DNA of 64,000 bases from NCBI GenBank assembly GCA_017161655.1, contig JADFCV010000002.1, forward strand, positions 218,778 through 282,777. The letters run 5' to 3'. Shown here piece after piece: positions 17,565 to 46,289 of this stretch (position 1 is its first letter; each line of letters opens with the position of its first letter). The stretch comes from Candidatus Sumerlaeota bacterium. Its GTDB lineage: Bacteria; Sumerlaeota; Sumerlaeia; Sumerlaeales; Sumerlaeaceae. Position numbers and translations under genes: made by a program. A model generated the notes under the pieces. That model was not told the origin of the DNA. It made no database searches and was given only the letters and a program-made list of their open reading frames with translations.

Positions 17565-17588
17565 CGGTCTGACGTTCCCTAATCTACT

Positions 17589-30340: not shown

Positions 30341-31414
30341 TTAGCGCCGCTTGCCACGCCCAGCTTTCGCGCGTGTTTTCGCTCGTGCCTTCTGATCCTT
30401 TTTCGTTTGGGGCTTTTGCGCTGCTGTTTTGGCCTTCTTGCGTTTTTTCTCGGCAGCACCTGATTTTTTTCGGCTAGCTGCCATCACTTTGGCTTTTTCC
30501 TTTGCCACCTTCTTCGCTTTGGGCTTTGCTGCGACTTTTGCCTTAGCTGCCTTCTTGGTCTTTTCGACGTCCTTTGTTTCTGATTTCCGCGGGCGACCAC
30601 GCTTCTTCGGTGCAGCTGGTTCTACTGCTGCCGTAACTTCTGTCTTCCGCGGACGCCCTCGTTTTCTCGGCGTGGGTGGTTGTGAGGGCTGGGCACCAGT
30701 TTCGCTTTTGCGCGGTCTCCCGCGGCGTCGCTTAGGCGCAATTTCTTCCGGTTCTTCGTCTAGTTTCTCTTCGATTGCAGCTATTCTCTCGTCCGCAGCC
30801 ACACTTTCCTTCTCTTCGAGCGCACCGGCCTGTTCTTGCGCTTGTTCCTCCTCAGGGCCAATCTCAGCCTCAGCGGCAGCACGTTCGCTTTCCCACTGTT
30901 CGGGTGGAATGCGGATGAAATCGGTTTCCACTAATTTTTCGAGGGCATCCTTGAGCTGATCAAAGACCCGTTTGAATGTGTCCATCGTCCCACCCATGGG
31001 ATCGGGAATCTGCACGTCCTTCCCATGGTAGCCAACGTACTCTTTGAGTAGGAAGGTTTTCCCCCGCGCCACATCGCTCTCGCGGATGGCTTTCTGAACA
31101 TGAAGCGAGGACATGCCAAGGATGAGGTCTGCTTCCTCAAGCATGTGCACCTTCATGGGACGAGAGCGATGGCGGCTGATGTCCACGCCCTCTTCTCTGA
31201 GAAGAAGTTCAGCTTCTGGGGTAGGCAAGAGACCGGTTGGTGTCATCACGCCGGCCGTTGAAATCTCAATCCAATCGATTCCCCGTTCGTGAAGTAGCTT
31301 TTTCAAATATCCTTCAGCCATCGGGCACCGGCAGTTGTCGCCAGTGTCCAGGAGCAACAGTTTTTTCTTCCGAACGCCAGGCTTCAGCTGGTTGTTCAAG
31401 TGTTTTCCCTCCAA
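30341..31414 (-). CDS. Fusion protein: YwlE-type low-molecular-weight phosphatase-like domain with nucleophile Cys replaced by Asp, acidic linker, three AT-hook motifs, and a histone-H1-like Lys/Ala-rich tail
   Basis: The N-terminal domain aligns to B. subtilis YwlE: LLLLDTGDNCRCPMAEGY vs IIFVCTGNTCRSPMAEAL, and TFLLKEYVGYHGKDVQIPDPMGG vs VFTLKEYVTGSHGDVLDPFGG. The tail carries PKRRRGRPRKSE, PRKRGRPRKTE and KKRGRPRKSE (GRP-core AT-hooks), then KKAAKAKVAAKPKAKKVAKEKAK. The start codon is TTG in the DNA. Confidence 0.65.
   Translation of the reverse strand: MEGKHLNNQLKPGVRKKKLLLLDTGDNCRCPMAEGYLKKLLHERGIDWIEISTAGVMTPTGLLPTPEAELLLREEGVDISRHRSRPMKVHMLEEADLILGMSSLHVQKAIRESDVARGKTFLLKEYVGYHGKDVQIPDPMGGTMDTFKRVFDQLKDALEKLVETDFIRIPPEQWESERAAAEAEIGPEEEQAQEQAGALEEKESVAADERIAAIEEKLDEEPEEIAPKRRRGRPRKSETGAQPSQPPTPRKRGRPRKTEVTAAVEPAAPKKRGRPRKSETKDVEKTKKAAKAKVAAKPKAKKVAKEKAKVMAASRKKSGAAEKKRKKAKTAAQKPQTKKDQKARAKTRAKAGRGKRR
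30575..30736 (-). repeat. Intragenic coding tandem repeats encoding the three (K/R)RGRPRK(S/T)E AT-hook units
   Basis: Three imperfect direct repeats of about 60 nt are visible in the DNA (gcggacgccctcgttttctcggcgt / cgcgggcgaccacgcttcttcggtg, etc.). They correspond to aa 227-280 of the protein. Confidence 0.6.
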
Positions 31415-31507: not shown

Positions 31508-31924
31508 TTAAGCCACAGCACCGAGTTTTGCTTTTCCCATGAGTTGCTGCATAGCCTCCTCAAAAAAGGGCTTTTCAATGAGATCTACGGCCCCAGCGGA
31601 AAGCGCCGTTACCCACAGCTCCTCGTCGCCCACATCCGTGACGACGGCGCAGATCACATCTTTCCTTTCACCGAGAATCTCATCGATCAGTTGGGCTACA
31701 TCCGCGCAAGTCTCACCCGCATCAATCAAGACGAGGTCAACCGCTTCCTGTTCGACGACGTTGTGAGCCTCATCCGGCTGGGAAGCTAACCGATATTGCA
31801 CCGGAATCCCAACCTTTTCCCCTGCACAGCGCGCTAAGCGTTCAGCGAGCTCTTTGTCATTGCTCACTACGAGAGCACGCAATGCATTCCCATGCGACCG
31901 CGTCAAACCGTTTGCACCCAGCAT
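31508..31924 (-). CDS. Stand-alone response-regulator receiver (CheY-like REC) protein
   Basis: 138 aa. beta1 ALVVSND, phospho-acceptor Asp in DLVLIDAG, Thr in AVVTD, Lys-Pro in IEKPF. No output domain. Confidence 0.6.
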   Translation of the reverse strand: MLGANGLTRSHGNALRALVVSNDKELAERLARCAGEKVGIPVQYRLASQPDEAHNVVEQEAVDLVLIDAGETCADVAQLIDEILGERKDVICAVVTDVGDEELWVTALSAGAVDLIEKPFFEEAMQQLMGKAKLGAVA

Positions 31925-32188: not shown

Positions 32189-32947
32189 ATGTGGTGCTTC
32201 ACGCTTGAAACCGAACACCCAGCGGCCCCGAACTGTATGCGTCAAGGCGTGAAGACTAGGATTGCCATATATGATTTTGACACCTGTCGCCCAGCCCTTG
32301 AAGCCCATGCCCAAGAGTTGGCGGAGTCGGCAGAAGGACTTGCCCGCTGGGCATCATTCCGGGATTTTATTCAAACCTTTGCTCGTGAGGCTGTAGACAA
32401 TCGCACGTGCGTTATTGGTCAGTTTGATCCTGATGTTGTTTTCGCCTTTGTCCCGGCAGAAGGTTTGGGAGCCAATGATCGCGAAGCTGTGTGGGTCTCG
32501 GTACTTGACCATGCACGTCGACTGATGGGAGGAACCGCCGCTCCCTACTGGCTTGATTTTCTTGACGCGATTGCTCCTGAGGGAATCCCGAAATCACCCA
32601 TTCTCCAAAATTCTTGGCTGGATCCCCACCTTGCACAGGAACTCCAATCGTCGCAGGTTGTGATTTGGGTCTTTTTCAATGCGAGACGTTTTCTGGAAGC
32701 CGTCATTCAGCCACAGCTATCCAAGCGTGGCTTCATGATTTTGCCAGACGAATCTGATGAACAATTGAGCGAACTACGCGTGAAACATCCTGGTTGTCCG
32801 AACAAGGTTTTTCGCATTCCTTGGAACGTGTGGTTTCGCGAAATGGTTGGTGGCGGCTTCAACATGCTCTATCTCATGGCTCTCGTGGCAATCTACTTGC
32901 AGAAACTCGAGCACGCGGTGACAGACAGTGGGCAAAGCGAGCAGTAA
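32189..32947 (+). CDS. Hypothetical protein, first gene of the long co-directional array
   Basis: 252 aa with no recognisable motif (possible alternative start at 32237, MRQGVKTR). Its 3' end overlaps the next ORF by 20 nt. Confidence 0.4.
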   Translation: MWCFTLETEHPAAPNCMRQGVKTRIAIYDFDTCRPALEAHAQELAESAEGLARWASFRDFIQTFAREAVDNRTCVIGQFDPDVVFAFVPAEGLGANDREAVWVSVLDHARRLMGGTAAPYWLDFLDAIAPEGIPKSPILQNSWLDPHLAQELQSSQVVIWVFFNARRFLEAVIQPQLSKRGFMILPDESDEQLSELRVKHPGCPNKVFRIPWNVWFREMVGGGFNMLYLMALVAIYLQKLEHAVTDSGQSEQ

Positions 32948-35225
32948 GCGGCGCTATACGGACGTCGCTCTTTACCGGCGTCTCTTTGGCTATCTCCACG
33001 GCACACGAATGATTGTGGCGCTTCTGGTCGTGTGCATGGTCCTTGAGGGGGCATTCACGGTTCTCACAATTAGCCTTGTCCGGCCGACGCTCGACCTCCT
33101 GGTCAAGAACCGTATTTCCGATTCCTCCAAGGTCCAGCAGAAGGGTGTTTTCGAGATCGGTGCACCTGTGAAGCTACCTGACAACGTTGTGGCAGTGCGC
33201 GCCGTGGGAGAGCTGATTTCCTCACGTGCTGCAGACGAACTGCGTGATCTCTTTGAAGCCGTCATTCGGCCACCCACTCGACGGCTCGTTGTTGATCTTT
33301 CTCAGGTCACGGCCGTCAGCGATGTGGTCTGGGCCCAGTTCCTCTTTGCGAAGCTTCTTACCACTCAAGGCATCAAATTGGATGTCATCGTAGCCGCAAA
33401 CCTCACTTGGCCACCAACCCTTGGTTCGGACGAAAATTTCCGTTTCCTTTCCAGCCTTGATGAGGAGGCCACGCGCATCCTTGCGACTCAAATCGCTCAG
33501 GTCCCCTTGCCCAAGTTGAGCAAGCCGAAAAAAGAAGGCTTTGTTGCCAACCTAAAGCGGCGTGCCGGCGAGGCGGTGATGCCGTACCTTCAAAAGATTC
33601 AAGAATACGTCATGGTGAGCAGCGCCAACAAATTTCGGGTTCTTGCTGGCATTCTGGCGCTGTTAGTCATCTCAGCATTGTGTATGGTGATCGCTTCTTT
33701 TGGCGTCGGCTACCTCAGCGCCTACATGGCCAATCTCTGCGTGACGCGTCTGCGTAATCACGTGATGCGCCACATGCTCCATCTCGATATGGAATTTTTT
33801 AATCGCTACTCAGTTGGCAACCTGATGTCCACTGTGACCCAGGACGTAGCAGCAGTTTCTGGGGCGATCGACATTCTCTTTTCCAACGTTCTAAAAACTC
33901 CAATCACTGTGGCAATGCTCATCGTGGCCATGTTCTTTGTGTCGCCCAAACTAACCCTCTACAGCCTCACGGTGGCGCCTCTCATTGGTCTTCTGCTTTA
34001 CGGAATCGGCCGCCGCGTGCGCAAGGTCAGTCAGCGAATCCAGGAGTTGCGTGCCGTTCTGTCCTCAATTGCCCAGGAATCCTTTGCCGGGATTCGTGTC
34101 GTGAAAGGTTTCAACATGGAAGACCGGCAAGCGGATCGCTACGAGAAGGAAAGCTGGACCGCTTTCAAGCGTGGCCTAAAAACCGTTGTGGCCGAAGAGC
34201 TTGGCACCGGCCTTACGGCCTTCCTTGGTGTTTTCACCGTCGCCGCCATGATTCTCCTTGGTGGCTTTTATGTTCTGCAGACCCGCGAGCTTAGCGGCTC
34301 GGAGTTTGTCCTATTCGTTGTCTTTCTCTCGCAAGTCTTTCGTCCCCTTAAAGGAAGCAGCCGTGTGATTTCGAAAATCCAACGCGGCATGGCCGGAAGC
34401 GACCGCGTGTTCCGGGTCCTGGACCAGCAACCAAATATCAAAGATGATCCTTCGGCTCCCCCGATTGCCGCGCCTCAGCGCGAGATTCGCTTCGAGCATG
34501 TCTGGTTCCGATATCATTCCTCCTCTGACTTTGTGCTGCGCGATATTGATGTGACAATCGAACCAGGCAAAGCACTTGCAATCGTTGGCGAAACGGGGTC
34601 GGGAAAGACCACGCTGGTGAGTCTCTTACCACGTTTCTTTGACCCCAACCAAGGCCGAATCCTTTTCGACGACGTGGACATTCGGACCGTCCGGCTCCGT
34701 TCCCTCCGCGATCTGATTGCCCTCATATCGCAGGACGTTGTTCTTTTCGACGACACAGTCGCCAACAACATCGCCTACGGAATGCCAGCCGACACACCCA
34801 TGGAGCAAATCATTGCGGCGGCCAAAGCGGCAAATGCCCACGACTTCATCATGCGGTTACCAAAGGGGTATGACACGCTTGTCGGAGGTAGGGGAGTCCG
34901 TCTTTCAGGGGGCGAACGCCAGCGCATTTCCATCGCGCGTGCGTTCCTAAAAAACGCTCCCATTCTCATCCTCGACGAGGCAACAAGCCAGCTCGATGCC
35001 GAGACAGAGTCACTGATTCAGCAATCATTGCTCGAAATCATGAAAGACCGCACGGTCTTCGTGGTGGCCCATCGCCTTGCAACCATCTTGCACTGCCACG
35101 AAATTATCGTGCTTGATGCCGGTCGCATAGTCGAGCGAGGGACCCACGACGAGCTCCTTCAACTGGGCGGGCGATATGCGCGATACTATCAACTTCAGTT
35201 TGCCACCGCTGGCGAAAGCTCATGA
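32928..35225 (+). CDS. ABC exporter (fused TMD-NBD, MsbA-like) with a ~170-aa STAS-like domain inserted between TM1 and TM2
   Basis: 765 aa. TM1 MIVALLVVCMVLEGAFTVLTISLV. Then VVAVRAVGELISSRAADELRDLFEAVIRPPTRRLVVDLSQVTAVSDVVWAQFLFAKLLTTQGIKLDVIVAANL, matching the STAS/anti-sigma-antagonist pattern (L.G.L......L...vvDls.V.f.ds.g...l........g..l.l). Then TM2-6 and an NBD (GETGSGKTT; LSGGERQRISIARAF; ILILDEAT). Confidence 0.7.
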   Translation: MGKASSKRRYTDVALYRRLFGYLHGTRMIVALLVVCMVLEGAFTVLTISLVRPTLDLLVKNRISDSSKVQQKGVFEIGAPVKLPDNVVAVRAVGELISSRAADELRDLFEAVIRPPTRRLVVDLSQVTAVSDVVWAQFLFAKLLTTQGIKLDVIVAANLTWPPTLGSDENFRFLSSLDEEATRILATQIAQVPLPKLSKPKKEGFVANLKRRAGEAVMPYLQKIQEYVMVSSANKFRVLAGILALLVISALCMVIASFGVGYLSAYMANLCVTRLRNHVMRHMLHLDMEFFNRYSVGNLMSTVTQDVAAVSGAIDILFSNVLKTPITVAMLIVAMFFVSPKLTLYSLTVAPLIGLLLYGIGRRVRKVSQRIQELRAVLSSIAQESFAGIRVVKGFNMEDRQADRYEKESWTAFKRGLKTVVAEELGTGLTAFLGVFTVAAMILLGGFYVLQTRELSGSEFVLFVVFLSQVFRPLKGSSRVISKIQRGMAGSDRVFRVLDQQPNIKDDPSAPPIAAPQREIRFEHVWFRYHSSSDFVLRDIDVTIEPGKALAIVGETGSGKTTLVSLLPRFFDPNQGRILFDDVDIRTVRLRSLRDLIALISQDVVLFDDTVANNIAYGMPADTPMEQIIAAAKAANAHDFIMRLPKGYDTLVGGRGVRLSGGERQRISIARAFLKNAPILILDEATSQLDAETESLIQQSLLEIMKDRTVFVVAHRLATILHCHEIIVLDAGRIVERGTHDELLQLGGRYARYYQLQFATAGESS

Positions 35226-35256
35226 AAAATAGCCAGAAGGCATTCACTTATCGGTC

Positions 35257-36510
35257 TTGCCGGTTGCAATCAAGCATCACTCACAGATAGCGAAAGCCAT
35301 AAATATGGTGCAATTCGACGATATTCGCTTCGACTGTACGCATTACACAGGCTACAAGCCATGCCGATTTGGTAACGAATGCAAAGGTTGCTGGCACTAC
35401 GAGCCACGTGAGCCTTATTCCGCCGAGCCCGCCCAACCTCTCCGTACGGATGCGCCAGCCCGTTCGACGAACGACACCTCTCCCTTTCGCATTCTCATCA
35501 TCAAAACGGGGGCAATGGGTGACGTCCTCCGGACGACGACGCTTCTTGCTCCGTTACTTCGTCACTACCAGGGAGCAGAGATTACCTGGGTTACAGATGC
35601 TTCTGCTGTTCCTCTCTTGGTTCACAATCCCAAAATACACCGTCTGCTCACTCTCTCCGAAAAAACGAGAGAAAAACTCGCAAATGAGACATTTGATCTC
35701 TTGCTCAATTTCGAGAAAGATCCTGCTCCGTTAGCGCTAGCTGGCCTCGTCCCCGCGCGTTGCCATCGCGGCTTTGCTCCAACGCTGTGGAATACGCCAA
35801 CGGTCTTCAATGAAGCCTCGCGCTACGCACTGCTTCTCGGTGTCAGCGATGAATTGAAATTCCGTATTAACACGAAAACATATCCACAAATTGTTTCGGA
35901 AATGGCTGAGCTTTCTTATGCCCGAGATCCTTACGAACTCTATCTCTCGGAGCACGCTGTGGCAAAACGCGAAAAGCTTTGCAACGAATTGGCTCAGCGA
36001 GAGAGACCATGGATAGGGTTGAATACGGGCTGCGGGTCTGTGTTTCGCACGAAACTCTGGCCGTTAGACCGTTGGGTTGAACTGATTCGCGAGCTTCAAG
36101 CGACACTTCCTGCGGCAACCTTGCTTTTGCTCGGCGGTCCGGCCGAACGTGAAATGAATGCTCAGATCTTGCAGCAATGTCCGGGCGTCATTCACACTGG
36201 CTGCGACAATTCGTTAGAAGAGTTCTTCGGCATCGTGGATGCGTGCGACCTAGTTGTCAGCTCCGACAGCTTGGCCATGCACATTGCGATTGCTCTTAAA
36301 AAGCACGTGGTCGCACTATTTGGATCGACCTCTGCAACGGAAATCGACCTGTTCGACCGTGGCGAAAAAGTGGTCACCGACTTCGATTGCAGTCCGTGCT
36401 ACCTCAAGAATTGCGACAAGAACCCCACGTGCATGCAGGCCATGACTGGCCGACGTGTCGCTGAAGCGGTTCTCCGCCAACTTCAGTCCGTGGTGGGGAA
36501 TGCTCAATGA
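35257..36510 (+). CDS. Glycosyltransferase family 9 (ADP-heptose-dependent heptosyltransferase-like) with N-terminal Cys4 motif
   Basis: The GT9 core FRILIIKTGAMGDVLRTTTLLAPL...GLNTGCGS...LLLLGGPAERE begins at ~aa 77. It is preceded by FDCTHYTGYKPCRFGNECKGCWHY (C-x8-C-x5-C-x2-C). The ORF track start is TTG at 35257; the first ATG is 35305. Confidence 0.65.
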   Translation: MPVAIKHHSQIAKAINMVQFDDIRFDCTHYTGYKPCRFGNECKGCWHYEPREPYSAEPAQPLRTDAPARSTNDTSPFRILIIKTGAMGDVLRTTTLLAPLLRHYQGAEITWVTDASAVPLLVHNPKIHRLLTLSEKTREKLANETFDLLLNFEKDPAPLALAGLVPARCHRGFAPTLWNTPTVFNEASRYALLLGVSDELKFRINTKTYPQIVSEMAELSYARDPYELYLSEHAVAKREKLCNELAQRERPWIGLNTGCGSVFRTKLWPLDRWVELIRELQATLPAATLLLLGGPAEREMNAQILQQCPGVIHTGCDNSLEEFFGIVDACDLVVSSDSLAMHIAIALKKHVVALFGSTSATEIDLFDRGEKVVTDFDCSPCYLKNCDKNPTCMQAMTGRRVAEAVLRQLQSVVGNAQ

Positions 36511-38210
36511 TCGCGATGAGAGAAAAGGGGGCATCTTCTGACAAGGTGCCGTTTCCCTCATCTCTTATCGTGCTACGTGGCACACTTCCCGCATTCCTAG
36601 TTTTTTTGGCATCTCTCTGGCTTCTTTCCTTGGGTCAATTCACAGTGCGGCGCATCACGACTGGCCTCGAGCATCCTTACGTCCAGCTCGACAATGAAGA
36701 AGGTGCACTACTGGCGCAGACGCTTGAGCTGCGCGGCGGCACATTACCTTATCGTCCCCTTGTGGATTATCCTTACATCGTTGGGACCTATCCCCCCCTT
36801 TACCTGGCAGCAGCTGCTTTTTGCACGACGGCGGAGACGCCCTCCTTCTATGGGGGGAGACTCGTATCCGCGATTGCCGCGGCGATGTGTCTAGTGGCTT
36901 TGGCAGTAACGGGATGGCGCTTGGGGCGCTCGTTCTTGTCAGCAGTCGTTGCACCGTCTCTTTTCTTGGGGACGTTTGAGGTTTACAGTTGGTCCCCCTA
37001 TTTCCGTACGGATTTTCTGGCGCTTGCTTTTTCGCTGCTAGGACTCTGCGTTGGGCTCTCTTTTTTCCAGAAACGCGTGGCTCTCGTTTTTTCTGCGCTT
37101 CTGTTCGCATGCGCTTTTTTTACAAAACAAACGTCCATCGCTGCCCCATTAGCGTTGTCTGTTGCATTGCTGGGTCGGAACCGCCGAGCTGTCGCGTTGT
37201 TTGTTTTCACCTACCTCAGCGCAGTCGCGATCCCCTTTGCTCTACTCACTTTGCTCACTCGCGGCCAGTTCTTTGTTCACACAGTGCTCTACAATGCTAA
37301 CCGCATGAACTGGCCTGATCTGATTGTATGGGCCAAACATGTTTGGCGTTTCTATCCGTGGCTCCTGGGTCTTGTTGTTGCCGCGCTGGTGTTGCCGCAC
37401 CTCGAAGAATTAAGCGGCAAGTCATCTTCGATAGACCCGTCTAAGAATGACACCAGCGATGCATCAACTCATCCCGCCGGTGACGCAGAATTGTTATCGG
37501 TTACTCCGCCATCTTGCGCTCGTAGCAAGGATTCTCAAGGCGTGCTGAGCAGTGCCGCAGCGATTTATTTCCTCTTCTCTCTTATAAATTTCGTTGCGAT
37601 AGCAAAGGCGGGCAGCGCCGAAAACTATCTCCTGGAACCTCTCGCAGCTGCTGCTCTCCTTGTAGGCACGGCGTTAGGTCGCTTTGCGCGTCCTTCCCCA
37701 TCTGCAAATGACCATTCCTTGCACGTCCAGCGCGTCCTTACTGTATTGTTCCTCTGCCATGCCGTCCACGTTGCTCACTGGGCGCCCGTCATGTTTTCAC
37801 CAGCCAAGCAACCGACGTCCGAAGATTTCAAACTCGCAGCAGTTCTTACGCAGCGTCTGCGCTCGGTCGCCGATCCCGTCATTAGCGAGCTTGCGGGCTA
37901 TACGATTTTCGCGGGGAAAAAAGTGCTCTTTCAGCCTTTTATTATGAGTGAGTTGGCACGGCAGGGTCGCTGGGACGAAAGTCACTTCGTGCGCGACATT
38001 GCCAACCACCGTTTCTCTTTAATTGCCACGACCGTCGATCTTACCACCAACGCCTACTCGGATGCTTTCACACCTGCCATGCGTGAGGCGATTCGGACGC
38101 ATTACGAACGTGCCGAAAAGTTTGAGTCCGGTCAGCTTTGGCGGTATTATCTTTTTTGTCCCAAACGCGATCCTGTCCAGCCGATCACCGGGAAGAAACA
38201 AAGCGGATGA
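36507..38210 (+). CDS. Polytopic membrane protein resembling GT-C-fold glycosyltransferases (ArnT/PMT/GT39/GT87-like)
   Basis: 567 aa with at least 10 predicted TM helices. First loop DYPYIVGTYPPLY, FTKQTSIAAPL. Soluble C-terminal domain of ~130 aa. The start overlaps the GT9 stop (ATGA). Confidence 0.4.
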   Translation: MIAMREKGASSDKVPFPSSLIVLRGTLPAFLVFLASLWLLSLGQFTVRRITTGLEHPYVQLDNEEGALLAQTLELRGGTLPYRPLVDYPYIVGTYPPLYLAAAAFCTTAETPSFYGGRLVSAIAAAMCLVALAVTGWRLGRSFLSAVVAPSLFLGTFEVYSWSPYFRTDFLALAFSLLGLCVGLSFFQKRVALVFSALLFACAFFTKQTSIAAPLALSVALLGRNRRAVALFVFTYLSAVAIPFALLTLLTRGQFFVHTVLYNANRMNWPDLIVWAKHVWRFYPWLLGLVVAALVLPHLEELSGKSSSIDPSKNDTSDASTHPAGDAELLSVTPPSCARSKDSQGVLSSAAAIYFLFSLINFVAIAKAGSAENYLLEPLAAAALLVGTALGRFARPSPSANDHSLHVQRVLTVLFLCHAVHVAHWAPVMFSPAKQPTSEDFKLAAVLTQRLRSVADPVISELAGYTIFAGKKVLFQPFIMSELARQGRWDESHFVRDIANHRFSLIATTVDLTTNAYSDAFTPAMREAIRTHYERAEKFESGQLWRYYLFCPKRDPVQPITGKKQSG

Positions 38211-39106
38211 GGCACGATTCCTCACATCTTGTAGGACGCCTCCTCATGCTGACCTCTGCTCTTTGCTTCGGAGTTATGGCTCTTCTCACCCGCATTCTTG
38301 CTTCTCTTCCCAGTGCCGAGAAGGTGTTCTTCCGAAGTTTTATCGGTCTCCTTCTCACAGCTGCTGCGTTCGTTGTCTTCTGTCGGCCTTTACCTCGGCC
38401 ACGCAATTATCGAGGGCTAATATGGCGCGGGATCTTTGGCAGTTTGGCGCTGCTCTGTTACTTTTACGCTATCGACCGTTGCGGCCTGCCGAAAGCCACA
38501 CTCTATTGTTACACCTATCCCGTGTGGGCGACACTTCTGGCATGGGCCGACTTGGGAGAGCGGCCATCGTCGCATGCCATTCTGGCCACTCTCGTTGCTG
38601 TGCTTGGCGTTGTTTTGACCCTGGAATTTCATGCAGACGCGCTTCTATCATTTTCGCATGCGGATGTCATTGGCCTACTGGCTGGGGCCTTTACGGGGGC
38701 TGCGATTGTCAGCGTTCGGCGCCTTCGTCAGGTTGAGTCTTCATGGTGGATTGTCATCTTCTTCACTTCCATCGGAGCTCTTCTCAGTGCCCCATTTCTT
38801 TTTGTTTCGTTCAAGCCGCCGGCGATGCTTGAGTGGCTAGGACTCATCGCACTTGCAGCGGCCGCCGCTGTGGCTCAGCTTCTGATGACAAAAGCCTATC
38901 GCACGCTCACCGCTGCAGAGGGAAGTTTGCTCTCGCTCACTGTGGTGCCATGGAGCTCCCTCTTTTCTGTCATTTTTCTAAGCGAAGTGCCACCGCTTCG
39001 CTTTTGGATAGGCGCTGCGGTTGTGTTCCTCGCAGTTGGGTGGCTCGTCCTTCACCAGACGAGCACACGTCCTGCCACACTGCCAGAGTCGCCGCTCGTC
39101 GACTGA
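38207..39106 (+). CDS. EamA/DMT-superfamily transporter (10-TM drug/metabolite exporter family)
   Basis: Two EamA-like halves (LALLCYFYAIDRCGLPKATLYCYTYPVWATLLAW; LLSLTVVPWSSLFSVIFLSE). The ATG at 38207 overlaps the upstream stop (ATGA). The ORF track lists a longer form from 38138. Confidence 0.7.
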   Translation: MRHDSSHLVGRLLMLTSALCFGVMALLTRILASLPSAEKVFFRSFIGLLLTAAAFVVFCRPLPRPRNYRGLIWRGIFGSLALLCYFYAIDRCGLPKATLYCYTYPVWATLLAWADLGERPSSHAILATLVAVLGVVLTLEFHADALLSFSHADVIGLLAGAFTGAAIVSVRRLRQVESSWWIVIFFTSIGALLSAPFLFVSFKPPAMLEWLGLIALAAAAAVAQLLMTKAYRTLTAAEGSLLSLTVVPWSSLFSVIFLSEVPPLRFWIGAAVVFLAVGWLVLHQTSTRPATLPESPLVD

Positions 39107-39194
39107 AATTTCACCAGTCAACCTTGAGAAAACTATGCACGTCTGAACCTGTGCAAAGCCAGATGCCTTTGCCTTGAGCGACTGTGAGGTGGAA

Positions 39195-40433
39195 ATGGTG
39201 AGTCACAATCATGGGCCAGTGGTTTCCTTGCAACCGCAGCTCCGGCGGCTTGTGGAGCAAGGAGAAATAGGAATTCCTGAACTTGCGGATGCGATCCTCG
39301 ACGGCGCGGAAAGCGTCGCCGCAAGCGATGTCCACATCGAGGCCCATGCCCAGTCCTACGTGGTACGTTTTCGTGTAGATGGAATGCTGCTCGATGTCAT
39401 TTCGATTCCCAAGTCACTCGGGGAAAACCTCATTGGCCGCCTGAAGATGATGGCCCGGGTCCTTACTTACAGGAAACGTGTGCCGCAGGACGGACGGGTA
39501 GAAGCTGGAGGAATCGGGATTAGGGCGGCGTTCATGCCAACCTTGCACGGTGAAAAGGCTGTCCTTCGGCTGCCTGTCGCTAACGTTCCGCAACGTCTTC
39601 ATGAGCTAGGAATGACTGATGACGACCGCACATGCCTAGAACGCGAGCTGATCGGCGGGCACGGAGTGATTTTTCTCACTGGCCCTTCCAGTAGCGGCAA
39701 GAGCACCACCATTTATGCTGCTCTCCGCTACATTCTTGAGCACTCGCCCCTGATACCAAATATTCTCACACTCGAAGATCCCATCGAGCAGGAGGTTCCA
39801 GGCGTCAATCAGACCCAAATCGACCCAGCTGGTGGGCTGACCTTTCCTGCCGGGCTTCGGACTATACTGCGGATGGATCCTGACGTCATTGTCGTGGGGG
39901 AGATTCGCGACGAAGAGACCGCGCGCATTGCTGTCCACGCTGGACTAAGTGGCCATAGAGTCTTAACCACCATTCACTCCGGATCCTGCGCACAGGTCTA
40001 TGCCCGCCTCCTTCACATGGGGATCGAGCCGTTTCTTCTCGCAACCGCAGTCTCTCTCATCATGGCCCAGCGCCTGGCGCGGCGCGTGTGCTCTTCTTGT
40101 GCTCAGCCACGTCCACTCGACCAGTGGGAAACCCGCCTCCTATCCGGGGAAGATTCGAGTGATTTTACCGGTGTGTCAGCCCCAGGGTGCCCAGACTGTT
40201 TCGGGACGGGTGCTCGTGGCCGATTGGCCATATTTGAATTGGCGGTCCCTTCTGCCGCAGTACGTCAAGCTGTCCTGGAGTGCGCGCCAGCACCTTTGAT
40301 CGCGGAGCTTCTCGAGGCGGCGGGAATGCGTCCTTTGCGCGTTGCTCTGCGTAACGCTGTCGTTGCCCACCAAGTTAGCATCGAAGAAGCAATTCGCCTG
40401 ACTGGAGGAATTAGGGATGAACGGGCCAGCTAA
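39195..40433 (+). CDS. GspE/PilB/ComGA-family secretion ATPase, minimal form (no N1 domain) with C-terminal tetracysteine motif
   Basis: SDVHIEAH...VRFRVDGML, RLKMMARVLTYRKRVPQDGRV. Walker A variant LTGPSSSGKSTTIYAAL, VGEIRDEETARIAVHAGLSGHRVLTTIHS, and CSSC...CPDC. ATG at 39195 preceded by GAGGTGG; the ORF track start is TTG at 39174. Confidence 0.8.
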   Translation: MVSHNHGPVVSLQPQLRRLVEQGEIGIPELADAILDGAESVAASDVHIEAHAQSYVVRFRVDGMLLDVISIPKSLGENLIGRLKMMARVLTYRKRVPQDGRVEAGGIGIRAAFMPTLHGEKAVLRLPVANVPQRLHELGMTDDDRTCLERELIGGHGVIFLTGPSSSGKSTTIYAALRYILEHSPLIPNILTLEDPIEQEVPGVNQTQIDPAGGLTFPAGLRTILRMDPDVIVVGEIRDEETARIAVHAGLSGHRVLTTIHSGSCAQVYARLLHMGIEPFLLATAVSLIMAQRLARRVCSSCAQPRPLDQWETRLLSGEDSSDFTGVSAPGCPDCFGTGARGRLAIFELAVPSAAVRQAVLECAPAPLIAELLEAAGMRPLRVALRNAVVAHQVSIEEAIRLTGGIRDERAS

Positions 40434-42528
40434 AGAGGAACCGAAACACTCAAAGCAGGATTCTTCGATCGAGCATGAAAGCGACGTAAGAATCCGGCCG
40501 GGATACGTTCCTTATGTTTCGAAAACGCATCGTTTGGTTACCGAGCGCGAAATCTCTCCGTGGGGTGCTGCCAAAACGTTTCTCGCTTGGGCGTTTCTCG
40601 GATTCCTTTTGCTTATTGTGTCCTCGACTGTGCGAGATGGACGGTTCCCACGTTCGGAAAACATCCGTTTTGCCATTGGGCTGTCTGGCCTCGCATGGGG
40701 GCTCTGCTATCTCATCGTACGTCTTACTGAAAGAGCTGCGCGATGGGCTGTCGGCGGCATAAAAAGCCAAAGTCTGTCGCGCATATACGCAGCGATCGTT
40801 GCATCCGTACTTCTTGGCACCCTATCCGTGTATTCCCCCCTCCCACTTCTGATCCGCCATTATCTACTTTCTGAGAATATATCGCCTGGTTTTGAGACAA
40901 AAGACTTGCTTCGGGATTTCTCGCAAGCCGTGGCCTTAGGGATCTGGGCGTTATTTACTGTTTTTGTTTGGCTCTATCGGCCACTGGCAACGAAATCCTC
41001 TGCTACCCGGCACTCCAGGGTTCTTGTGCTCGTAGTAGCGGGTTCTTTGCTGCTGGTGATGATGATAGTCCGGGGTATGTATGAGAATCACCCACAACAG
41101 ACCATCGGAGGATTGTGGCTAAGCTACCTTGTTCTGAGCGATTTGCACCCACAATGGGATCGAGAAGTAGTCAAATTCGCTCCGCAACTTGCTCTTTTGT
41201 CTGCGTTTGCCATCCCTCTGTTTGTCGTGTTACTATTGCTGCTCAACGCAAGAACTTGGGGTCCCGACGTTTCGATAAGAAGTCCTTTAGGGCCTATTCG
41301 CCCGCGGGTAAGCATCTCAGCAGCTCTTAATGCTCTTATCCACGGCGCACTGGTCGTTGGTGCAATAGCCTGCTTCAGTGTGGGAGCAACCGCCACAAGT
41401 CCCTTGGAGACACCCAGGGCCATGTGGTTGTTATTTATTCTTTTTCTCGTTAGCTTCTTGGTCGGCCGCTTGTCCCTTGCAGCATTTATGCTGCCTCAAA
41501 GGGCCCGGTGGCAGCCATCTTTTTACGAACATCTCGCTTTGGCAGTCGAAAGTGGCTATCCTCTGTCGGACGCAATTCTTAGCTACCTCGAGTCTGACAT
41601 TCCCTCATCAGTCAAGATGGCTCTGTTTCAGATTCTCCACAGTATCGAGCTCGGCGTCTCTCTTCCTCAGGCTTTACTTGAGAATCCTGTAATGTTTCCA
41701 GCTCAAGATGCAGCCTTAATCGCGAGCGCAGAGGATCCAGCCACACTTGCTCAAACACTTCGCTATTTGGCGAACCAGGAGCGTCGCCGTAGCTACGAGA
41801 CTCTGAGCCTTTCCTATTTGCGACTCATTGCTCTCGAGGCAATTGCGGCGGTGATAATCTTCTTCTTCATCTCAATAGTCTCGCTGCCGAAAATCCTGGC
41901 TGTTTCGACTCAAGCCACAGTCATACCTATCCCGCAGTTTTCGCAGGCGGTCTTCGCTGCGTCGGACTGGGTTACGGAACACGTTCTTGAGATTCTGGCA
42001 CTGCTATTTCTTGCCTATCTACTCATTCGGGTAATTTACTCCCGCAGTCTTATCTTTCGGATCATCGTATGGCGCCTGTGTCCTATCCTGAAGCACTATC
42101 ATTGGGCAAAGCGCCTCGCGGGCTTCAGTCTTGGTCTGCGCCTCCAACTTCAGCGGGGGGCTCACATCGCGGAAGGAATTAAGAACGCTCAGGCTGTTGT
42201 GGGGGATTTGGTCTTTAGCCGGTTAGCCGATCGCCTTGCTGATCTGGTAAACTTGGGGAACCCTCTTTACGTTGCCGTGGGAAGCGTGCGTGCGTTCCCC
42301 GCTTCATTCGCCGCGTTTCTCGCACTGGGGGCTCGTAGTGAACGACTTCCTGAGGTACTCGAGCTGCTCGCCGAGGACTATCAGCGTCAAACGACACTGT
42401 TGCGTGAGCGGCTACTTGGGATTGCCAGCATCCTCGTCGCTCTCGCTGTGCTAATTCTAGCGGTCTGCTACGTAATGGCGGTTTACTTGGTCATGTTTAG
42501 GGTCGTCTTGGGAGTTCCTTATGAATAG
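40417..42528 (+). CDS. GspF/PilC-like platform protein (two T2SSF domains) with ~340-aa N-terminal polytopic extension
   Basis: 703 aa. T2SSF-like FYEHLALAVESGYPLSDAILSYLE...GVSLPQALLENPVMFPAQDAALIASAEDPATLAQTLRYLA at ~aa 350-480. A second at ~aa 520-700 (RLAGFSLGLRLQLQRGAHIAEGIKNA...LPEVLELLAEDYQRQ). About 8 TM helices precede the first. The start overlaps the gspE-like stop. Confidence 0.6.
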   Translation: MNGPAKEEPKHSKQDSSIEHESDVRIRPGYVPYVSKTHRLVTEREISPWGAAKTFLAWAFLGFLLLIVSSTVRDGRFPRSENIRFAIGLSGLAWGLCYLIVRLTERAARWAVGGIKSQSLSRIYAAIVASVLLGTLSVYSPLPLLIRHYLLSENISPGFETKDLLRDFSQAVALGIWALFTVFVWLYRPLATKSSATRHSRVLVLVVAGSLLLVMMIVRGMYENHPQQTIGGLWLSYLVLSDLHPQWDREVVKFAPQLALLSAFAIPLFVVLLLLLNARTWGPDVSIRSPLGPIRPRVSISAALNALIHGALVVGAIACFSVGATATSPLETPRAMWLLFILFLVSFLVGRLSLAAFMLPQRARWQPSFYEHLALAVESGYPLSDAILSYLESDIPSSVKMALFQILHSIELGVSLPQALLENPVMFPAQDAALIASAEDPATLAQTLRYLANQERRRSYETLSLSYLRLIALEAIAAVIIFFFISIVSLPKILAVSTQATVIPIPQFSQAVFAASDWVTEHVLEILALLFLAYLLIRVIYSRSLIFRIIVWRLCPILKHYHWAKRLAGFSLGLRLQLQRGAHIAEGIKNAQAVVGDLVFSRLADRLADLVNLGNPLYVAVGSVRAFPASFAAFLALGARSERLPEVLELLAEDYQRQTTLLRERLLGIASILVALAVLILAVCYVMAVYLVMFRVVLGVPYE

Positions 42529-42707
42529 CAAAATCACAAGAGGGCTGTTCGAATTGCCTTTCCGTGCCGAGAGAGGGCCAGTCCACGTTGCCCACCAAAC
42601 GGCCCCGCGGCATCCGACTCTGCACTTGCAACGACAAGAGCTTTCATGTGGGCCACGGTCTCCTAACGGGGTGACAAATCATCTTCACGTGAGAGGAGAG
42701 AGCGCGA

Positions 42708-43766
42708 ATGCATGCTTACGATGATCTGGAAATCATTTTAGCCGAATTGGCCCATCTCGATGCTGCGGGACTGAATGCGGAAGAAGGGATAGCGGCATTG
42801 CGCGAGCGGATTCGGAGCCGGCCGCTTCGCCAGGCGCTCGATGAACTTGAGGAAAACTGCCGATGCGGACTGACACTCGGCCAGGCTATGGCTCGGGTGG
42901 GAGGTATCTTTCATCCTGTCATACGCGGGCTTGTTGTGGCAGGGGAGAAAAGCGGGGATCTGGCCGGCGCCCTCGTGAAGTCAGCGTCTTTCCTCGCTAT
43001 GCGACGCAGTGTCCTGAGCGCACTTCGCACCGCAGGGCTTTATCCGTTTGCCGTTCTCACCGTTGGAGCCATTGTCTCAGTGCTTCTCGCCTTCTTTATT
43101 TTACCTCATCAGTGGGCACTCGTCGAGAAAATGCACCTTCAAATCTGGCGGACAGACCACACTCAGTCGCCGCATTCCGCATTCGTTGCCGCCAGCATTG
43201 CCATCCGTGCTTCTGCTCTGCTCATTTGTGCTCTCTGGCTAGCGGCCGTGGTTTTAGCTCTCCTCATGCTGAAGGCTCCCCATCAACCTCTTCTGCACCG
43301 CGTCATCGCGCGGCTGCCTGGTTTTGGCCCTGTTGTCAGGCGCTACTTCTTATTCCACTTCGCGTCCGTTCTCGAAATGCAGCTCAGCCGCGGCGTTCCG
43401 CTCACACAAGCGCTGGATGCCCTGGCGGACGATGCAAGTCTTCCACTGGTAGCTGAAGCAGCCCGTTGTGCTCGAAACTCTCTTGAGCTGGGCGCGCCGA
43501 TGTCAAACGGCCTTGTGCTGACGCCGATCGTTTTCCCCCCACAAGAGCTATGGTTCTTGCGTCACGCTGAACGCTACGAACATGTGCCCCGCTATTTTGC
43601 TGAGCTTGCAAACAAAACGGCCGCGGAAATCCGGACCATAGAAAGACTTATACTCAGATTCGAGCCGCTAGCAATCGGCCTACTCAGCATCGTTGTTGCC
43701 ATGTTTCTCGTTTCAGTCTTTCTCCCGATTTCGCGTTGGTATCAATTCATTTCCCTGGGGGAGTGA
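42708..43766 (+). CDS. GspF/PilC-like platform protein (two T2SSF-like domains, compact 352 aa)
   Basis: LRQALDELEENCRCGLTLGQAMARVGGIFHPVIRGLVVAGEKSGDLAGALVKSASF and VVRRYFLFHFASVLEMQLSRGVPLTQALDAL...PQELWFLRHAERYEHVPRYFAELA, each followed by TM helices. Confidence 0.6.
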   Translation: MHAYDDLEIILAELAHLDAAGLNAEEGIAALRERIRSRPLRQALDELEENCRCGLTLGQAMARVGGIFHPVIRGLVVAGEKSGDLAGALVKSASFLAMRRSVLSALRTAGLYPFAVLTVGAIVSVLLAFFILPHQWALVEKMHLQIWRTDHTQSPHSAFVAASIAIRASALLICALWLAAVVLALLMLKAPHQPLLHRVIARLPGFGPVVRRYFLFHFASVLEMQLSRGVPLTQALDALADDASLPLVAEAARCARNSLELGAPMSNGLVLTPIVFPPQELWFLRHAERYEHVPRYFAELANKTAAEIRTIERLILRFEPLAIGLLSIVVAMFLVSVFLPISRWYQFISLGE

Positions 43767-43770
43767 AACG

Positions 43771-44205
43771 ATGATGAAGAGAGTCATGATTTCAAAGGCT
43801 GGGGGAGTGCACCGGCAAGCCGCGATCACGCTCCTGGAGATGCTTGTCGTCATAGCAGTTCTCAACATAGCCTTTTTGGGTTATCTCTTACTCGCGGATC
43901 GAGCCATGAGTACGGCGGCCTGGGGACGCGACATGACACTTGCCCTGACCCTGGCCCAGAACGAACTTGAATGGTGGCAATCAGCGTCGGCTGAAGCTCG
44001 CGCGAACCTGGGGCCAGGTGACCACAATTTTGCCAACCCAACCGCGGAGAACATCCGTCAACCATTTACCGCAAGACTTCACGTCGAGCCCGTAGGAGAT
44101 AGCCTTCTCCTACTTCGCGCTGTTGTTCAACGCGAACACTGGCACCGCCCAGTTCAAATCGAGCTCGAAACACTCATTCCAAGAGAGGGAGGACAGCGGC
44201 AATGA
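43771..44205 (+). CDS. Prepilin/pseudopilin-like protein (N-terminal methylation-type hydrophobic helix, non-canonical cleavage site)
   Basis: MMKRVMISKAGGVHRQAAITLLEMLVVIAVLNIAFLGYLL is a class-III-signal-like N-terminus with Glu at the expected +5 but Ala, not Gly, before the helix. GGGGGAG Shine-Dalgarno upstream of the ATG at 43771. Confidence 0.5.
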   Translation: MMKRVMISKAGGVHRQAAITLLEMLVVIAVLNIAFLGYLLLADRAMSTAAWGRDMTLALTLAQNELEWWQSASAEARANLGPGDHNFANPTAENIRQPFTARLHVEPVGDSLLLLRAVVQREHWHRPVQIELETLIPREGGQRQ

Positions 44206-44786
44206 CAAGATCAGCACCATCGCTTCGTGCGTCGCAGCGTTCCCTTCGCAACGCATTCACACTTATCGAACAACTCATTGTCATCGCGATTGTCTCAATG
44301 CTGAGCGCGTCACTGCTCGTGGCTTTCCTGTTTTGTCTCAGGCTGGAGAAAGCAATATCCGCCCAGCAAACTCTCTCTGACACTTTTGCTGAGCTCGATC
44401 GCACTTGGCGCCACGATATTCACGGAGCTAATCGCGTGTCGTTGGTCTCGTCCAGAGCTAGCGATACACTCACGACTGTCGTTTTGATAGAGTATGATCA
44501 ACGCGACTCGCGGTTTCCATGCCGTTATGAAATTTCCCCAGACAGGCGCGGGCGGTTTACGCTTGTTCGTGCGATTGCGGGCGATCGCAAGACAACCACC
44601 ACCCAGACCCTGGCGCGCGAGCTTATGGGAGCAACGGTTTCGCTAGATGAGGAAAAGTCCCTCTACGAGCTGCGCATCACTGCCACAGCTGGATTTGACG
44701 TTTTTCATGCTCGCCAGGACCTCCGCATCATCGCGAGCGGCAAAGCGCAACCAATAAAAACCATTTTCGGGGAGGTGCCCCAATGA
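44202..44786 (+). CDS. Prepilin/pseudopilin-like protein with A|FTLIE-type leader site
   Basis: MTRSAPSLRASQRSLRNAFTLIEQLIVIAIVSMLSASLLVAFLF. FTLIE with Glu+5 is canonical, but Ala replaces Gly at position -1. The start overlaps the upstream stop (ATGA). Confidence 0.6.
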   Translation: MTRSAPSLRASQRSLRNAFTLIEQLIVIAIVSMLSASLLVAFLFCLRLEKAISAQQTLSDTFAELDRTWRHDIHGANRVSLVSSRASDTLTTVVLIEYDQRDSRFPCRYEISPDRRGRFTLVRAIAGDRKTTTTQTLARELMGATVSLDEEKSLYELRITATAGFDVFHARQDLRIIASGKAQPIKTIFGEVPQ

Positions 44787-45163
44787 GACTCCTCCGTTCT
44801 GCAACGCCTGTTGGTCGCCATCCCAGCCGTGGCTCAACGATGCTCTATGTCGGCGGAATCGTCGCTGTTGCCATGATTCTTCTGTTCGGGCTTACCGAGC
44901 AAAGCATCGCACACACACATCACGTCGGCAGCCTTGTTAACCGGGCACGCGCCGAGTGGCTCCTCCGAGGAGGGTATGTCATCTTATCAGCCCCCGAGAC
45001 CCGTCTGCCGAGCAAGGAAAAGCTACATCTTCCAGTTCGGACAGGGAATTTACAGTGTACAGTCGAACACACATCGGCGGGACTCGCACTTCTGGCAACA
45101 GCGAGCGTGCCCAGGGACAATCCGCGTCTCAGCGTAATCGCGAAGTGGTTACGTCAAGACTGA
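44783..45163 (+). CDS. Small membrane-anchored protein (possible minor pilin-like or assembly component), last gene of the array
   Basis: 126 aa with a single N-terminal TM MLYVGGIVAVAMILLFGLTEQ. The start overlaps the upstream stop (ATGA). No recognisable motif. Confidence 0.35.
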   Translation: MRLLRSATPVGRHPSRGSTMLYVGGIVAVAMILLFGLTEQSIAHTHHVGSLVNRARAEWLLRGGYVILSAPETRLPSKEKLHLPVRTGNLQCTVEHTSAGLALLATASVPRDNPRLSVIAKWLRQD

Positions 45164-45215: not shown

Positions 45216-46289
45216 CTAGTCCAGCCATTCTTGCAAGTGAGCGGATACGAAAGCGTCGTCGGGCAGCCATGGATACTGAGCGCATACCCGCGTGATTTCC
45301 TCTGCCTGCCCCGGTGAGAGATCGAGCGTTGGGTCCAGGCATAATCGGGTCCGCAATAAACCTTGTCGCCGAAGGACTTCATTGATCCCCGGGATGCAGC
45401 CCCGAAATCCATGCGCTGCATCAAAAATAGCTGCATTCGCGTCCGTTAATTGGGCTCCGCGCTCTAACAGGGATTTCGGAACATCCGAGTGGTGCGATCG
45501 GATGTCGCGAATTTCGTGCAGCAGCCGCACTGCCGTGCGTGTCCACACGCTAAACTGTCCCAGTAAGCCGCCGCGCATGTATATCGGTGGTCCTTCATGG
45601 CGTTTCGCCACAGCAAAGGGAGTCGTGAGATCCGCCACAATGTTGTCATCGTTACCGGTGTAAAGGGCAATGTCGTTCTCACGGCCCGCATCACAGACAG
45701 CACGCACCACATCGAGTGTTCGATAGCGATCAAACGGCGCCACCTTAATGGCGACGACGTTCTCGATCTGGACAAATTCCTTCCAGAACTCGTAGGGCAG
45801 AATCCGTCCCCCGACCGCTGGTTGAAGATAAAACCCGACAAGTGGTGCGACCTCAGCCACTGCTCGGCAGTGCTCAAGCAGTTGTCGTAAAGTGGCCCTG
45901 CGTAAACTTGCGAGACTCAAAAGAACGGCATCATAGCCCAGTGTCATAGCGAGCGACGCTTCTCGTCGTGCCTGTCTGGTATGGCCGCAGACACCTGCAA
46001 TTCTCACCAAGCGTTTATGAACCACACGTTCCGCTTCCTCAGCAGCTTCCGCACATAACCGAAGGACCGGCTCAAACAAGCCAATGCCCGGCTCTCGGAT
46101 TTCAAATTGCGTCGTATGCACGGCCACGGCTATGCCCCCCGCACCAGCTGCGGCGTAATAGCGAATGAGTGCACGCTGATAGCGTGTGTCGAAACGCCGT
46201 TCTTCATCCAGCGCCAACGGAACAGCAGGAATGACAATTCCTTTGAGCAACTCTTCGTGTACTGCCCGATCGAACTGTGATGCTGCCAC
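45216..46289 (-). CDS. Dihydrodipicolinate synthase / N-acetylneuraminate lyase superfamily (class-I aldolase TIM-barrel)-like protein
   Basis: GIVIPAVPLALDEERRFDTRYQRALIRYYAAAGAGGIAVAVHTTQFEI, GYDAVLLSLASL, PLVGFYLQPAV and NVVAIKVAPFD follow the DapA/NAL topology, including the Schiff-base Lys position. Confidence 0.45.
   Translation of the reverse strand: MAASQFDRAVHEELLKGIVIPAVPLALDEERRFDTRYQRALIRYYAAAGAGGIAVAVHTTQFEIREPGIGLFEPVLRLCAEAAEEAERVVHKRLVRIAGVCGHTRQARREASLAMTLGYDAVLLSLASLRRATLRQLLEHCRAVAEVAPLVGFYLQPAVGGRILPYEFWKEFVQIENVVAIKVAPFDRYRTLDVVRAVCDAGRENDIALYTGNDDNIVADLTTPFAVAKRHEGPPIYMRGGLLGQFSVWTRTAVRLLHEIRDIRSHHSDVPKSLLERGAQLTDANAAIFDAAHGFRGCIPGINEVLRRQGLLRTRLCLDPTLDLSPGQAEEITRVCAQYPWLPDDAFVSAHLQEWLD

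Follow-up and report, generated by a model that had tools for sequence, protein, structure and literature searches.

An eleven-gene array in a Sumerlaeota genome

The 64,000-nucleotide stretch analysed here (the window; positions 218,778 to 282,777 of contig JADFCV010000002.1, assembly GCA_017161655.1) comes from a Candidatus Sumerlaeota bacterium and contains an unbroken plus-strand series of eleven genes spanning about 13 kb (32189-45163). In order, the array encodes a conserved hypothetical protein, an ABC exporter, a GT9 glycosyltransferase, a GT-C-fold membrane glycosyltransferase, an EamA transporter, a GspE/PilB-type ATPase, two GspF-like platform proteins and three prepilin-like proteins. 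An open reading frame (ORF) scan and inspection of the ten internal junctions confirmed the co-directional, overlapping or near-abutting arrangement described in an initial annotation made from the sequence alone. With the most plausible starts, the junctions measure -20, +31, -4, -4, +88, -17, +179, +4, -4 and -4 bp; seven of the ten overlap or are at most 4 bp long. Minus-strand genes bound the array on both sides, namely a response regulator gene (31508-31924) and a DHDPS-like gene (45216-46289). The closest named orthologues belong to Candidatus Sumerlaeaceae and Ca. Sumerlaea chitinivorans. To our knowledge, the envelope and surface appendages of the Sumerlaeota (BRC1), a phylum without cultivated members that is found worldwide, have hardly been studied.

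The initial annotation interpreted the array as one system whose glycosyltransferases serve its pilins. Judged by the gene content of related loci, each viewed with 10 kb of flank, the array instead appears to be composed of two modules, each of which is found without the other: module A (hypothetical protein, ABC exporter, GT9 and GT-C) and module B (ATPase, a pair of platform proteins designated FL and Fs, and three pilins). GC content and GC content at third codon positions (GC3) are even across both modules and their flanks, and there is thus no sign of recent acquisition of either. Searches of the 31-46 kb region against the Rfam families returned zero matches.

Module A encodes two glycosyltransferases and two exporters

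The first gene of module A (32189-32947, +) encodes a conserved hypothetical protein with one C-terminal hydrophobic helix. The protein would be 252 aa long if translated from 32189, but the ATG at 32237, which gives 236 aa, is the more likely start. Pfam, NCBIfam and PDB searches with this protein were all without a match. The gene overlaps the start of the ABC exporter gene by 20 bp, and its orthologues sit before the ABC gene in loci L001, L002, L006 and L007.

The second gene (32928-35225, +) encodes a 765-aa half-transporter of the MsbA/PglK/HepA type (ABC_membrane 1e-46, ABC_tran 5e-30). Its top model is MsbA TIGR02203, at 500 bits (cutoff 602); this score and that for NF008381 (428 bits, cutoff 867) place the protein outside the MsbA lipid A flippase equivalog. 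Models of HepA, PglK and glucan exporters match it as well. The protein carries an insert of about 150 aa between transmembrane (TM) helices 1 and 2, which is lacking in the L007 orthologue and for which the topology of MsbA predicts a periplasmic location. This is the region that had been labelled STAS. The other family assignments of the initial annotation (ABC, GT9, EamA, GspE-like, two GspF-like and prepilin-like) held, but STAS scored under threshold, at 18.8 bits for PF01740 (cutoff 22.6) and 18.9 bits for PF13466 (cutoff 29.2). A single-sequence AlphaFold2 model of the insert has a beta-alpha-beta-alpha-beta pattern, but with a pLDDT of 50 it is unreliable. The same window encodes, at 3752-5560 (+), another MsbA-like ABC exporter, which at 602 aa has the canonical size; the 765-aa copy is thus unlikely to be the housekeeping lipid flippase.

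The GT9 glycosyltransferase (GT-B fold; 35257-36510, +) starts at a TTG at 35257 or an ATG at 35305. It is a clear member of PF01075 (1e-19; 71 bits, gathering cutoff 22). Models of heptosyltransferases I and II match it at about 90 bits, below every WaaC, WaaF and WaaQ equivalog cutoff, and its PDB matches, to WaaF, WaaC and 3tov, are weak (1e-9). WaaC/WaaF and the autotransporter heptosyltransferases of the BAHT family (TibC/AAH) are, like this protein, all GT9 members, and the BAHT enzymes had been cited as a precedent for a protein-modifying role. The array's GT9 resembles the lipopolysaccharide (LPS) heptosyltransferases instead: a PDB sequence search, the only comparison made with this family, returned no match to the BAHT structure TibC at E<=1. 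Unlike WaaC and WaaF, the protein has additional Cys-rich segments at its N terminus (C-x10-C-x5-C-x2-C, residues ~26-46) and C terminus (C-x2-C-x5-C-x6-C, residues ~387-404), which suggest metal-binding sites that neither of those two enzymes has.

The next gene (36507-38210, +) encodes a membrane glycosyltransferase of a small subfamily that has no Pfam match; a profile of this family found no match among PDB sequences either. Structure prediction bore out the earlier guess of a GT-C enzyme: the model has a polytopic, ArnT-like GT-C fold with the acidic motif in the first extracytoplasmic loop, and D62 and E65 (DNEEG), near the start of this loop, are invariant. A small alpha/beta domain, rather than TPR repeats, occupies the C terminus of the model (residues 455-555).

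A tblastn matrix was built for 57 GT-C-anchored loci, and counts were taken from the 29 with at least 4 kb of downstream sequence and the 33 with enough upstream sequence. GT9 adjoins the GT-C gene in 20 of these 33 loci. Moreover, in locus L009 a GT9 domain is fused to a GT-C-like domain in a single 959-aa protein (P0161, 4844-7723), a Rosetta-stone fusion which indicates that this GT-C subfamily works jointly with GT9. The GT9-GT-C pair is the core of module A. Genes for an LPG_synthase_TM protein and a polysaccharide deacetylase come after P0161 in L009.

The EamA/DMT transporter gene (38207-39106, +; PF00892 3e-30), with about 9-10 predicted TM helices, is translationally coupled to the GT-C gene through an ATGA overlap (junction -4 bp). 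It was found solely in the Sumerlaeaceae-type loci L001, L002, L006, L044 and L049, and is missing from L007-L009.

Module B encodes a short ATPase, paired platform proteins and three prepilin-like proteins

Module B begins with a 412-aa assembly ATPase of the GspE/PilB type (39195-40433, +) with Walker A motif GPSSSGKS and a tetracysteine motif CSSC...CPDC. It lacks the N-terminal N1E/MshEN domain, and its alignment to the GspE model begins at model position 99; the members of its orthologue clade are 404-422 aa long. All of the T2SSE, T2SSF and N-methyl assignments of the initial annotation were supported by hidden Markov models (T2SSE, PF00437, 9e-96; T2SSF, 1e-19 and 1e-27; N_methyl, 1.6e-4 each). 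The best NCBIfam models of the ATPase are GspE (363 bits, cutoff 630) and PilB (327 bits), both below their cutoffs, and the PDB matches are to EpsE (4e-82) and PilB (2e-74). The ComGA model scores 199.5 bits (5e-59; cutoff 300) and the TadA model 38 bits. A scan of genome contigs with the ATPase recovered one Sumerlaeaceae locus, the same as L001; the remaining matches were generic GspE proteins of at most 42% identity from Myxococcota, Acidobacteriota and others.

Two platform genes follow. FL (40417-42528, +; 703 aa, T2SSF twice, 1e-19) starts with an extension of about 340 aa that contains 8 TM helices. The GspF/PilC core behind it is diverged but has both of its domains, and HofC/GspF models align to it at residues 368-695. 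A word-based search with FL found only FL itself, and an exhaustive search found the extension in just one other protein cluster, P0192. Fs (42708-43766, +; 352 aa, 3 TM helices) matches T2SSF at 1e-27 and the GspF model at 3e-37. Each of the two proteins contains two PF00482 stretches, as expected for platform proteins of the type IV filament superfamily; ComGB models match them at 1e-15 to 1e-18 (57-68 bits, cutoff 240).

Pairwise comparison of all GspF homologues in the compared loci separated them into two orthologous groups: Fs proteins are about 350 aa long and well conserved (100-350 bits within the group), FL proteins are 400-700 aa long and fast-evolving (55-180 bits within the group), and scores between the groups are only 20-40 bits. 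The genes are always in the order FL then Fs. The window and loci L001, L002 and L004 have a single pair each, L006 has two pairs, and L003 has two pairs and one further copy. By these scores, FL and Fs are two anciently diverged paralogue groups. Since both partners carry two T2SSF domains, their origin points to duplication, unlike that of TadB and TadC of the Tad pilus, which have one T2SSF domain each and arose by gene fission (10.1101/576694; PMC10191384). The reference survey of the superfamily treats this single-domain pair, a product of fission, as the systematic case of a two-gene platform and describes other platform duplicates as rare, at 8% of representatives (10.1101/576694; PMC10191384). 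A conserved pair of two-domain platform paralogues is therefore a noteworthy variant, not a new kind of machine. Module B is always accompanied by both full-length paralogues, one of which is fast-evolving and gained an 8-TM extension in this lineage. The platform is treated as a homo-oligomer in current models; a hetero-paired platform would serve as a useful natural experiment, given these models and Tad as the sole recognised two-gene case.

The 179-bp gap between the two platform genes (42529-42707) is specific to this genome; the corresponding genes are 15 bp apart in L001 and overlap in L002. The gap has no Rfam match. A 67-aa ORF at 42521-42724 was considered as a twelfth gene and rejected, since it has no Pfam match and no counterpart in relatives and is thus probably not a gene.

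The initial annotation counted two or three prepilin-like proteins, and there are three, as judged by hidden Markov models and by N termini conserved in six loci. Pil1 (43771-44205, +; 144 aa) has the signal ...HRQAA↓ITLLE (the arrow separates positions -1 and +1) and matches N_methyl at 1.6e-4 and the GspI model at 1.8e-4; its motif R-(G/A)↓(L/I/V)TL(L/W)E is kept in the six loci, and its PDB matches are limited to the pilin alpha1-N segment. Pil2 (44202-44786, +; 194 aa, ...LRNA↓FTLIE) matches N_methyl at 1.6e-4 and TIGR02532 at 21.4 (cutoff 16.3). Its motif (G/A)↓(F/V)TLIE is invariant in the six loci, and pilin N termini in the PDB match it. Both proteins thus have the class III signal peptide (G/A at -1, Glu5) and pass PF07963/TIGR02532. 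Pil3 (44783-45163, +; 126 aa, RG↓STMLY) has no Pfam match and lacks Glu5, but its motif RG(S/T)TMLY and TM helix are kept in six loci; with this GspK-type N terminus it probably sits at the filament tip, like GspK-type minor pilins. The ComGC model scores 17 against a cutoff of 75.

A Pfam scan of the window covered ORFs of at least 150 aa and a few smaller ones. Among these, the absence of a secretin, PilM/N/O/P and a prepilin peptidase had been correctly noted; GspC, GspL, GspM and PilT were not found either, and the sole PilM_2-like match is FtsA, beside FtsQ. Prepilin peptidase (Peptidase_A24) was not found in the 10-kb flanks of L001-L009 either. Since one genomic survey of Sumerlaeota reports type IV pilus twitching genes in all metagenome-assembled genomes (PMC8092238), a peptidase and a secretin may be encoded elsewhere in the genome.

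The two modules occur separately in related loci

The full gene order recurs in just three distinct loci, all of the Sumerlaeaceae type. Loci L001 (ATPase 71% identical) and L002 (62%) contain all eleven genes in the same order, and L006 (ATPase 55%, GT-C 45%) has the same order and flanks, save for two additional GspF genes inserted between the EamA and ATPase genes. All three also retain unrelated flanking genes. In L001 and L002 these are, upstream, a double-PPIase rotamase, a low-molecular-weight (LMW) phosphatase and a response regulator and, downstream, an aminotransferase, to which a DHDPS/epimerase gene is added in L002. Because the joined loci also keep unrelated neighbours, conservation of the order is indistinguishable from background synteny.

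Elsewhere the modules occur apart. Loci L003 and L004 (ATPase 51-53% identical) contain the ATPase, FL/Fs pairs and three pilin-like genes, and no ABC, GT9, GT-C or EamA gene; L005 and L094 (45-46%) have a lone ATPase. Conversely, L007 has the same upstream flank (rotamase, LMWPc) and the hypothetical-ABC-GT9-GT-C series, which is then followed by tuf and a ribosomal protein operon, while L008 contains only GT9 and GT-C, and L009 the ABC gene and the GT9::GT-C fusion. Among the 29 GT-C-anchored loci with enough downstream sequence, ATPase and GspF genes lie downstream of GT-C in five (three distinct), all of the Sumerlaeaceae type and with GT-C identity of at least 45%. The 24 others, which comprise every non-Sumerlaeaceae locus, are without pilus genes. 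Unbiased clustering of neighbours outside the Sumerlaeaceae showed GT9, GT4 and MoxR/DUF58 genes as recurrent GT-C neighbours and no pilus genes. Conservation of the gene order in relatives, a check suggested with the initial annotation, was observed only in the three distinct Sumerlaeaceae-type loci.

The boundary between the modules coincides with an 88-bp intergenic gap (39107-39194), one of just two real gaps in the array; this junction is also the site at which L006 differs. Its counterparts in L001, L002 and L006 measure about 53-235 bp, and the boundary contains no conserved promoter-like motif, Rfam element or convincing terminator. Modules A and B may or may not share a transcript.

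Several observations weigh against a separation of the two modules. The eleven genes have stayed together on one strand in three lineages that are deeply diverged (ATPase 55-71% and GT-C 45-50% identical), and this contiguity was kept even though L001 lost the DHDPS/epimerase flank; it is steadier than random neighbours usually are. The 88-bp gap, with no convincing terminator, is compatible with read-through. The distribution of EamA and of the divergent response regulator follows module B, as neither gene occurs in loci that lack it. The module lacking in L003, L004 and L007 could lie outside the 10-kb flanks. Finally, TfpW, a proven pilin glycosyltransferase, is ArnT-like too, and the fold ranking is thus compatible with a protein acceptor for the GT-C enzyme.

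Some neighbouring genes vary with the modules. The single-domain response regulator at 31508-31924 (-), divergent from the array, is present in L001, L002, L006 and L044 and not in L007, where EamA and the pilus module are missing too. The gene at 30341-31414 (-) encodes a low-molecular-weight protein tyrosine phosphatase domain with a long C-terminal extension containing an AT-hook motif; L007 and every Sumerlaeaceae-type locus keep it upstream of module A. The module B relative in L003 (275-11025), with five T2SSF genes and one ATPase, has an ECF sigma factor gene and a gene for a 280-aa unknown protein directly upstream, and in L005 an ECF sigma factor and a small unknown protein directly precede the lone ATPase; as this recurrence hints, the ATPase clade may be under the control of an ECF sigma factor.

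Distant GT-C-like genes (26-29% identical) are divergent from PilB in L076 (~5753-9247), L077 (7593-11533; here PilB is full-length, MshEN plus T2SSE, 656 aa) and L080 (~4268-8008), and a PilT-like gene lies 5 kb from a GT-C-like gene in L068/L069. An independent GT-C/pilus link at these loci was treated as weak or coincidental because the ATPases are alone, with neither GspF nor pilin genes beside them, and have housekeeping neighbours (ychF, pdxT and mreB/C in L076, L077 and L080).

Comparison of module B with known filament systems

Module B shares features with several type IV filament systems and fits none of them fully. Like the Com pilus of monoderms (ComGA-ComGB-ComGC..GG), it comprises an ATPase, a platform and a run of small prepilins, lacks a secretin, PilMNOP and GspLM, and has its peptidase elsewhere. 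It could accordingly be a DNA-uptake pseudopilus equivalent to comGA-comGB-comGC, unrelated to module A and with a redundant second platform gene; comG operons likewise run from ATPase to platform to pilins and lack genes for an alignment subcomplex (PMC10191384), and the ATPase and platforms match ComGA and ComGB. However, every Com score is below its cutoff and weaker than those of GspE and GspF, no ComEA, ComEC or ComC gene was found near the array among the scanned ORFs, and there are two diverged full-length platforms instead of one and just three pilin-like genes. The ancient FL/Fs pair, retained in every locus and even duplicated as pairs, also speaks against redundancy. A Com-type identity, which as defined by the ComM-type pilus would need ComGA/ComGB/ComGC equivalogs and linked DNA-uptake genes, is therefore considered unlikely.

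The likeness to the core of the type II secretion system (T2SS; GspE-GspF-pseudopilins) is closer: the best matches of the ATPase are GspE/EpsE and that of Fs is GspF, and pil1 is weakly GspI-like and pil3 GspK-like. Nevertheless, the array lacks GspC, D, L and M, the equivalog scores are far under the cutoffs (363 against 630; 129 against 424), and the ATPase is without the N1E domain, through which GspE binds GspL; the module is thus distinct from a T2SS sensu stricto. Within the window it also lacks the PilM/N/O/P, PilQ secretin and PilT that define a type IVa pilus. The Tad (T4c) pilus likewise has two different platform proteins encoded in tandem (TadB and TadC), but both partners here carry two T2SSF domains and the ATPase is of the GspE/PilB type, not TadA, which sets module B apart from Tad as well.

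Proposed functions of the two modules

The array is best explained, with a probability of about 0.6, as two adjacent, independently distributed modules, in which genes for assembly and export of an envelope glycoconjugate lie beside those for a minimal Com/T2SS-like type IV filament. Module A (32.2-39.1 kb) would build and export a lipid-linked envelope glycoconjugate. In this scheme, the cytoplasmic GT9 would glycosylate a lipid-linked acceptor, the MsbA/PglK-like ABC exporter would flip the glycosylated lipid to the outer face, and the ArnT-like GT-C enzyme would then add a sugar there from a polyprenyl-phosphate donor. ArnE/F flip the polyprenyl-phosphate sugar donor of the Arn pathway, and by analogy the EamA/DMT protein may supply or flip the donor here. 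Apart from the unmatched first protein, each module A protein has an assigned family or fold, and the GT9-GT-C(-ABC) linkage is conserved; the steps, substrate, donor sugar and acceptor are proposed because of the analogy with LPS-core, Arn and lipid-linked oligosaccharide pathways. Compared with the Arn pathway (ArnT GT-C plus the ArnE/F DMT flippase) and MsbA, the GT-C enzyme is only 13% identical to ArnT, the EamA protein is a full 10-TM protein and not a 4-TM pair, and the array lacks an ArnC-type polyprenyl-phosphate sugar synthase and sugar-nucleotide genes. A GT-C subfamily without a Pfam match that is linked and sometimes fused to GT9 would represent a conserved two-step glycoconjugate pathway in several uncultured lineages.

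In module B (39.2-45.2 kb), the N1-less GspE/PilB-type ATPase would drive a platform made of the two paralogues FL and Fs, which would polymerise the three prepilin-type proteins into a short (pseudo)pilus. This would need a prepilin peptidase encoded elsewhere and, if the filament leaves the cell, a secretin as well. Since there is no secretin in the locus, the filament would be either a periplasmic endopilus (T2SS/Com-like) or one that uses a secretin encoded elsewhere.

The alternative favoured by the initial annotation is one dedicated system, in which GT9 and GT-C glycosylate the pilins of the adjacent machine with lipid-linked sugars supplied by the ABC and EamA proteins. The tightly packed co-directional array, the order kept in L001, L002 and L006, the co-variation of EamA and the response regulator with module B, and the GT-C fold confirmed by structure prediction are in line with it. 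So is the precedent of TfpW, a GT-C pilin arabinosyltransferase of Pseudomonas aeruginosa group IV pilins that, like the enzyme of the array, has ArnT as its best structural template and an acidic motif in the first periplasmic loop (bioRxiv 10.1101/2020.04.19.049825). However, tfpW lies directly after pilA and its product has a C-terminal TPR domain (bioRxiv 10.1101/2020.04.19.049825). Neither feature applies here: the GT-C enzyme ends in the small alpha/beta domain, its gene is upstream of the ATPase gene, four genes from the pilins, and its family is mostly without pilus neighbours, so that it does not qualify as TfpW-type. The GT9 shows no BAHT affinity, and the sole N-x-T motif conserved in pil1 is N-P-T, a sequence disfavoured for N-glycosylation. 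Above all, the modules are apart in L003, L004, L007-L009 and all non-Sumerlaeaceae GT-C loci with enough flank, and the loci with conserved order keep unrelated flanks too. A single pilin-glycosylating system is thus improbable, and a 'glycosylated pilus factory' is unsupported by present evidence. The adjacency of A and B is a lineage-specific juxtaposition, in which pilin glycosylation by module A is conceivable but doubtful and a dedicated system for it is unproven.

The coupling could also run in the opposite direction, with a T2SS-like endopilus or piston that helps to move the glycoconjugate of module A, or a glycoprotein, through the envelope, or with module A locally remodelling the envelope for secretin-free passage of the filament. 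The lack of a secretin, PilMNOP and GspLM in the locus, the ATPase matching best to GspE models and EpsE structures, the weak GspI match of pil1, the GspK-like absence of Glu5 in pil3, and the adjacency of A and B conserved within the family would fit such a link. Against it stand the separability of the modules (L003 and L004 without A, L007-L009 without B) and the missing T2SS-specific parts (GspC, D, L, M and the N1E domain of GspE). Moreover, we know of no type IV filament that exports a lipid-linked glycan, and the proposal is wholly inferential; it is regarded as very unlikely.

A broader functional meaning of the juxtaposition in Sumerlaeaceae is likewise a long shot, though a less remote one: the previously unrecognised, ArnT/TfpW-like GT-C subfamily, fed by GT9, ABC and EamA, might act on a new class of type IV filament, either by modifying its subunits or by altering its passage through the envelope. 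This class would be characterised by an obligate hetero-paired, full-length FL+Fs platform (sometimes two pairs), an N1-less ATPase, three pilins and no dedicated secretin.

Other features of the window

Three genes in a row at 13981-18971 (-) encode a heparinase II/III-like lyase, a DUF362 protein and a protein of 460 aa without a Pfam match; DUF362 is also encoded close to GT-C-like genes in L068 and to the ATPase gene in L005. A 418-aa minus-strand ORF at 54467-55723 is very probably a shadow ORF, since it overlaps nearly wholly with an H+-pyrophosphatase gene (54734-56920, +; PF03030, 6e-267) and has no family match of its own.

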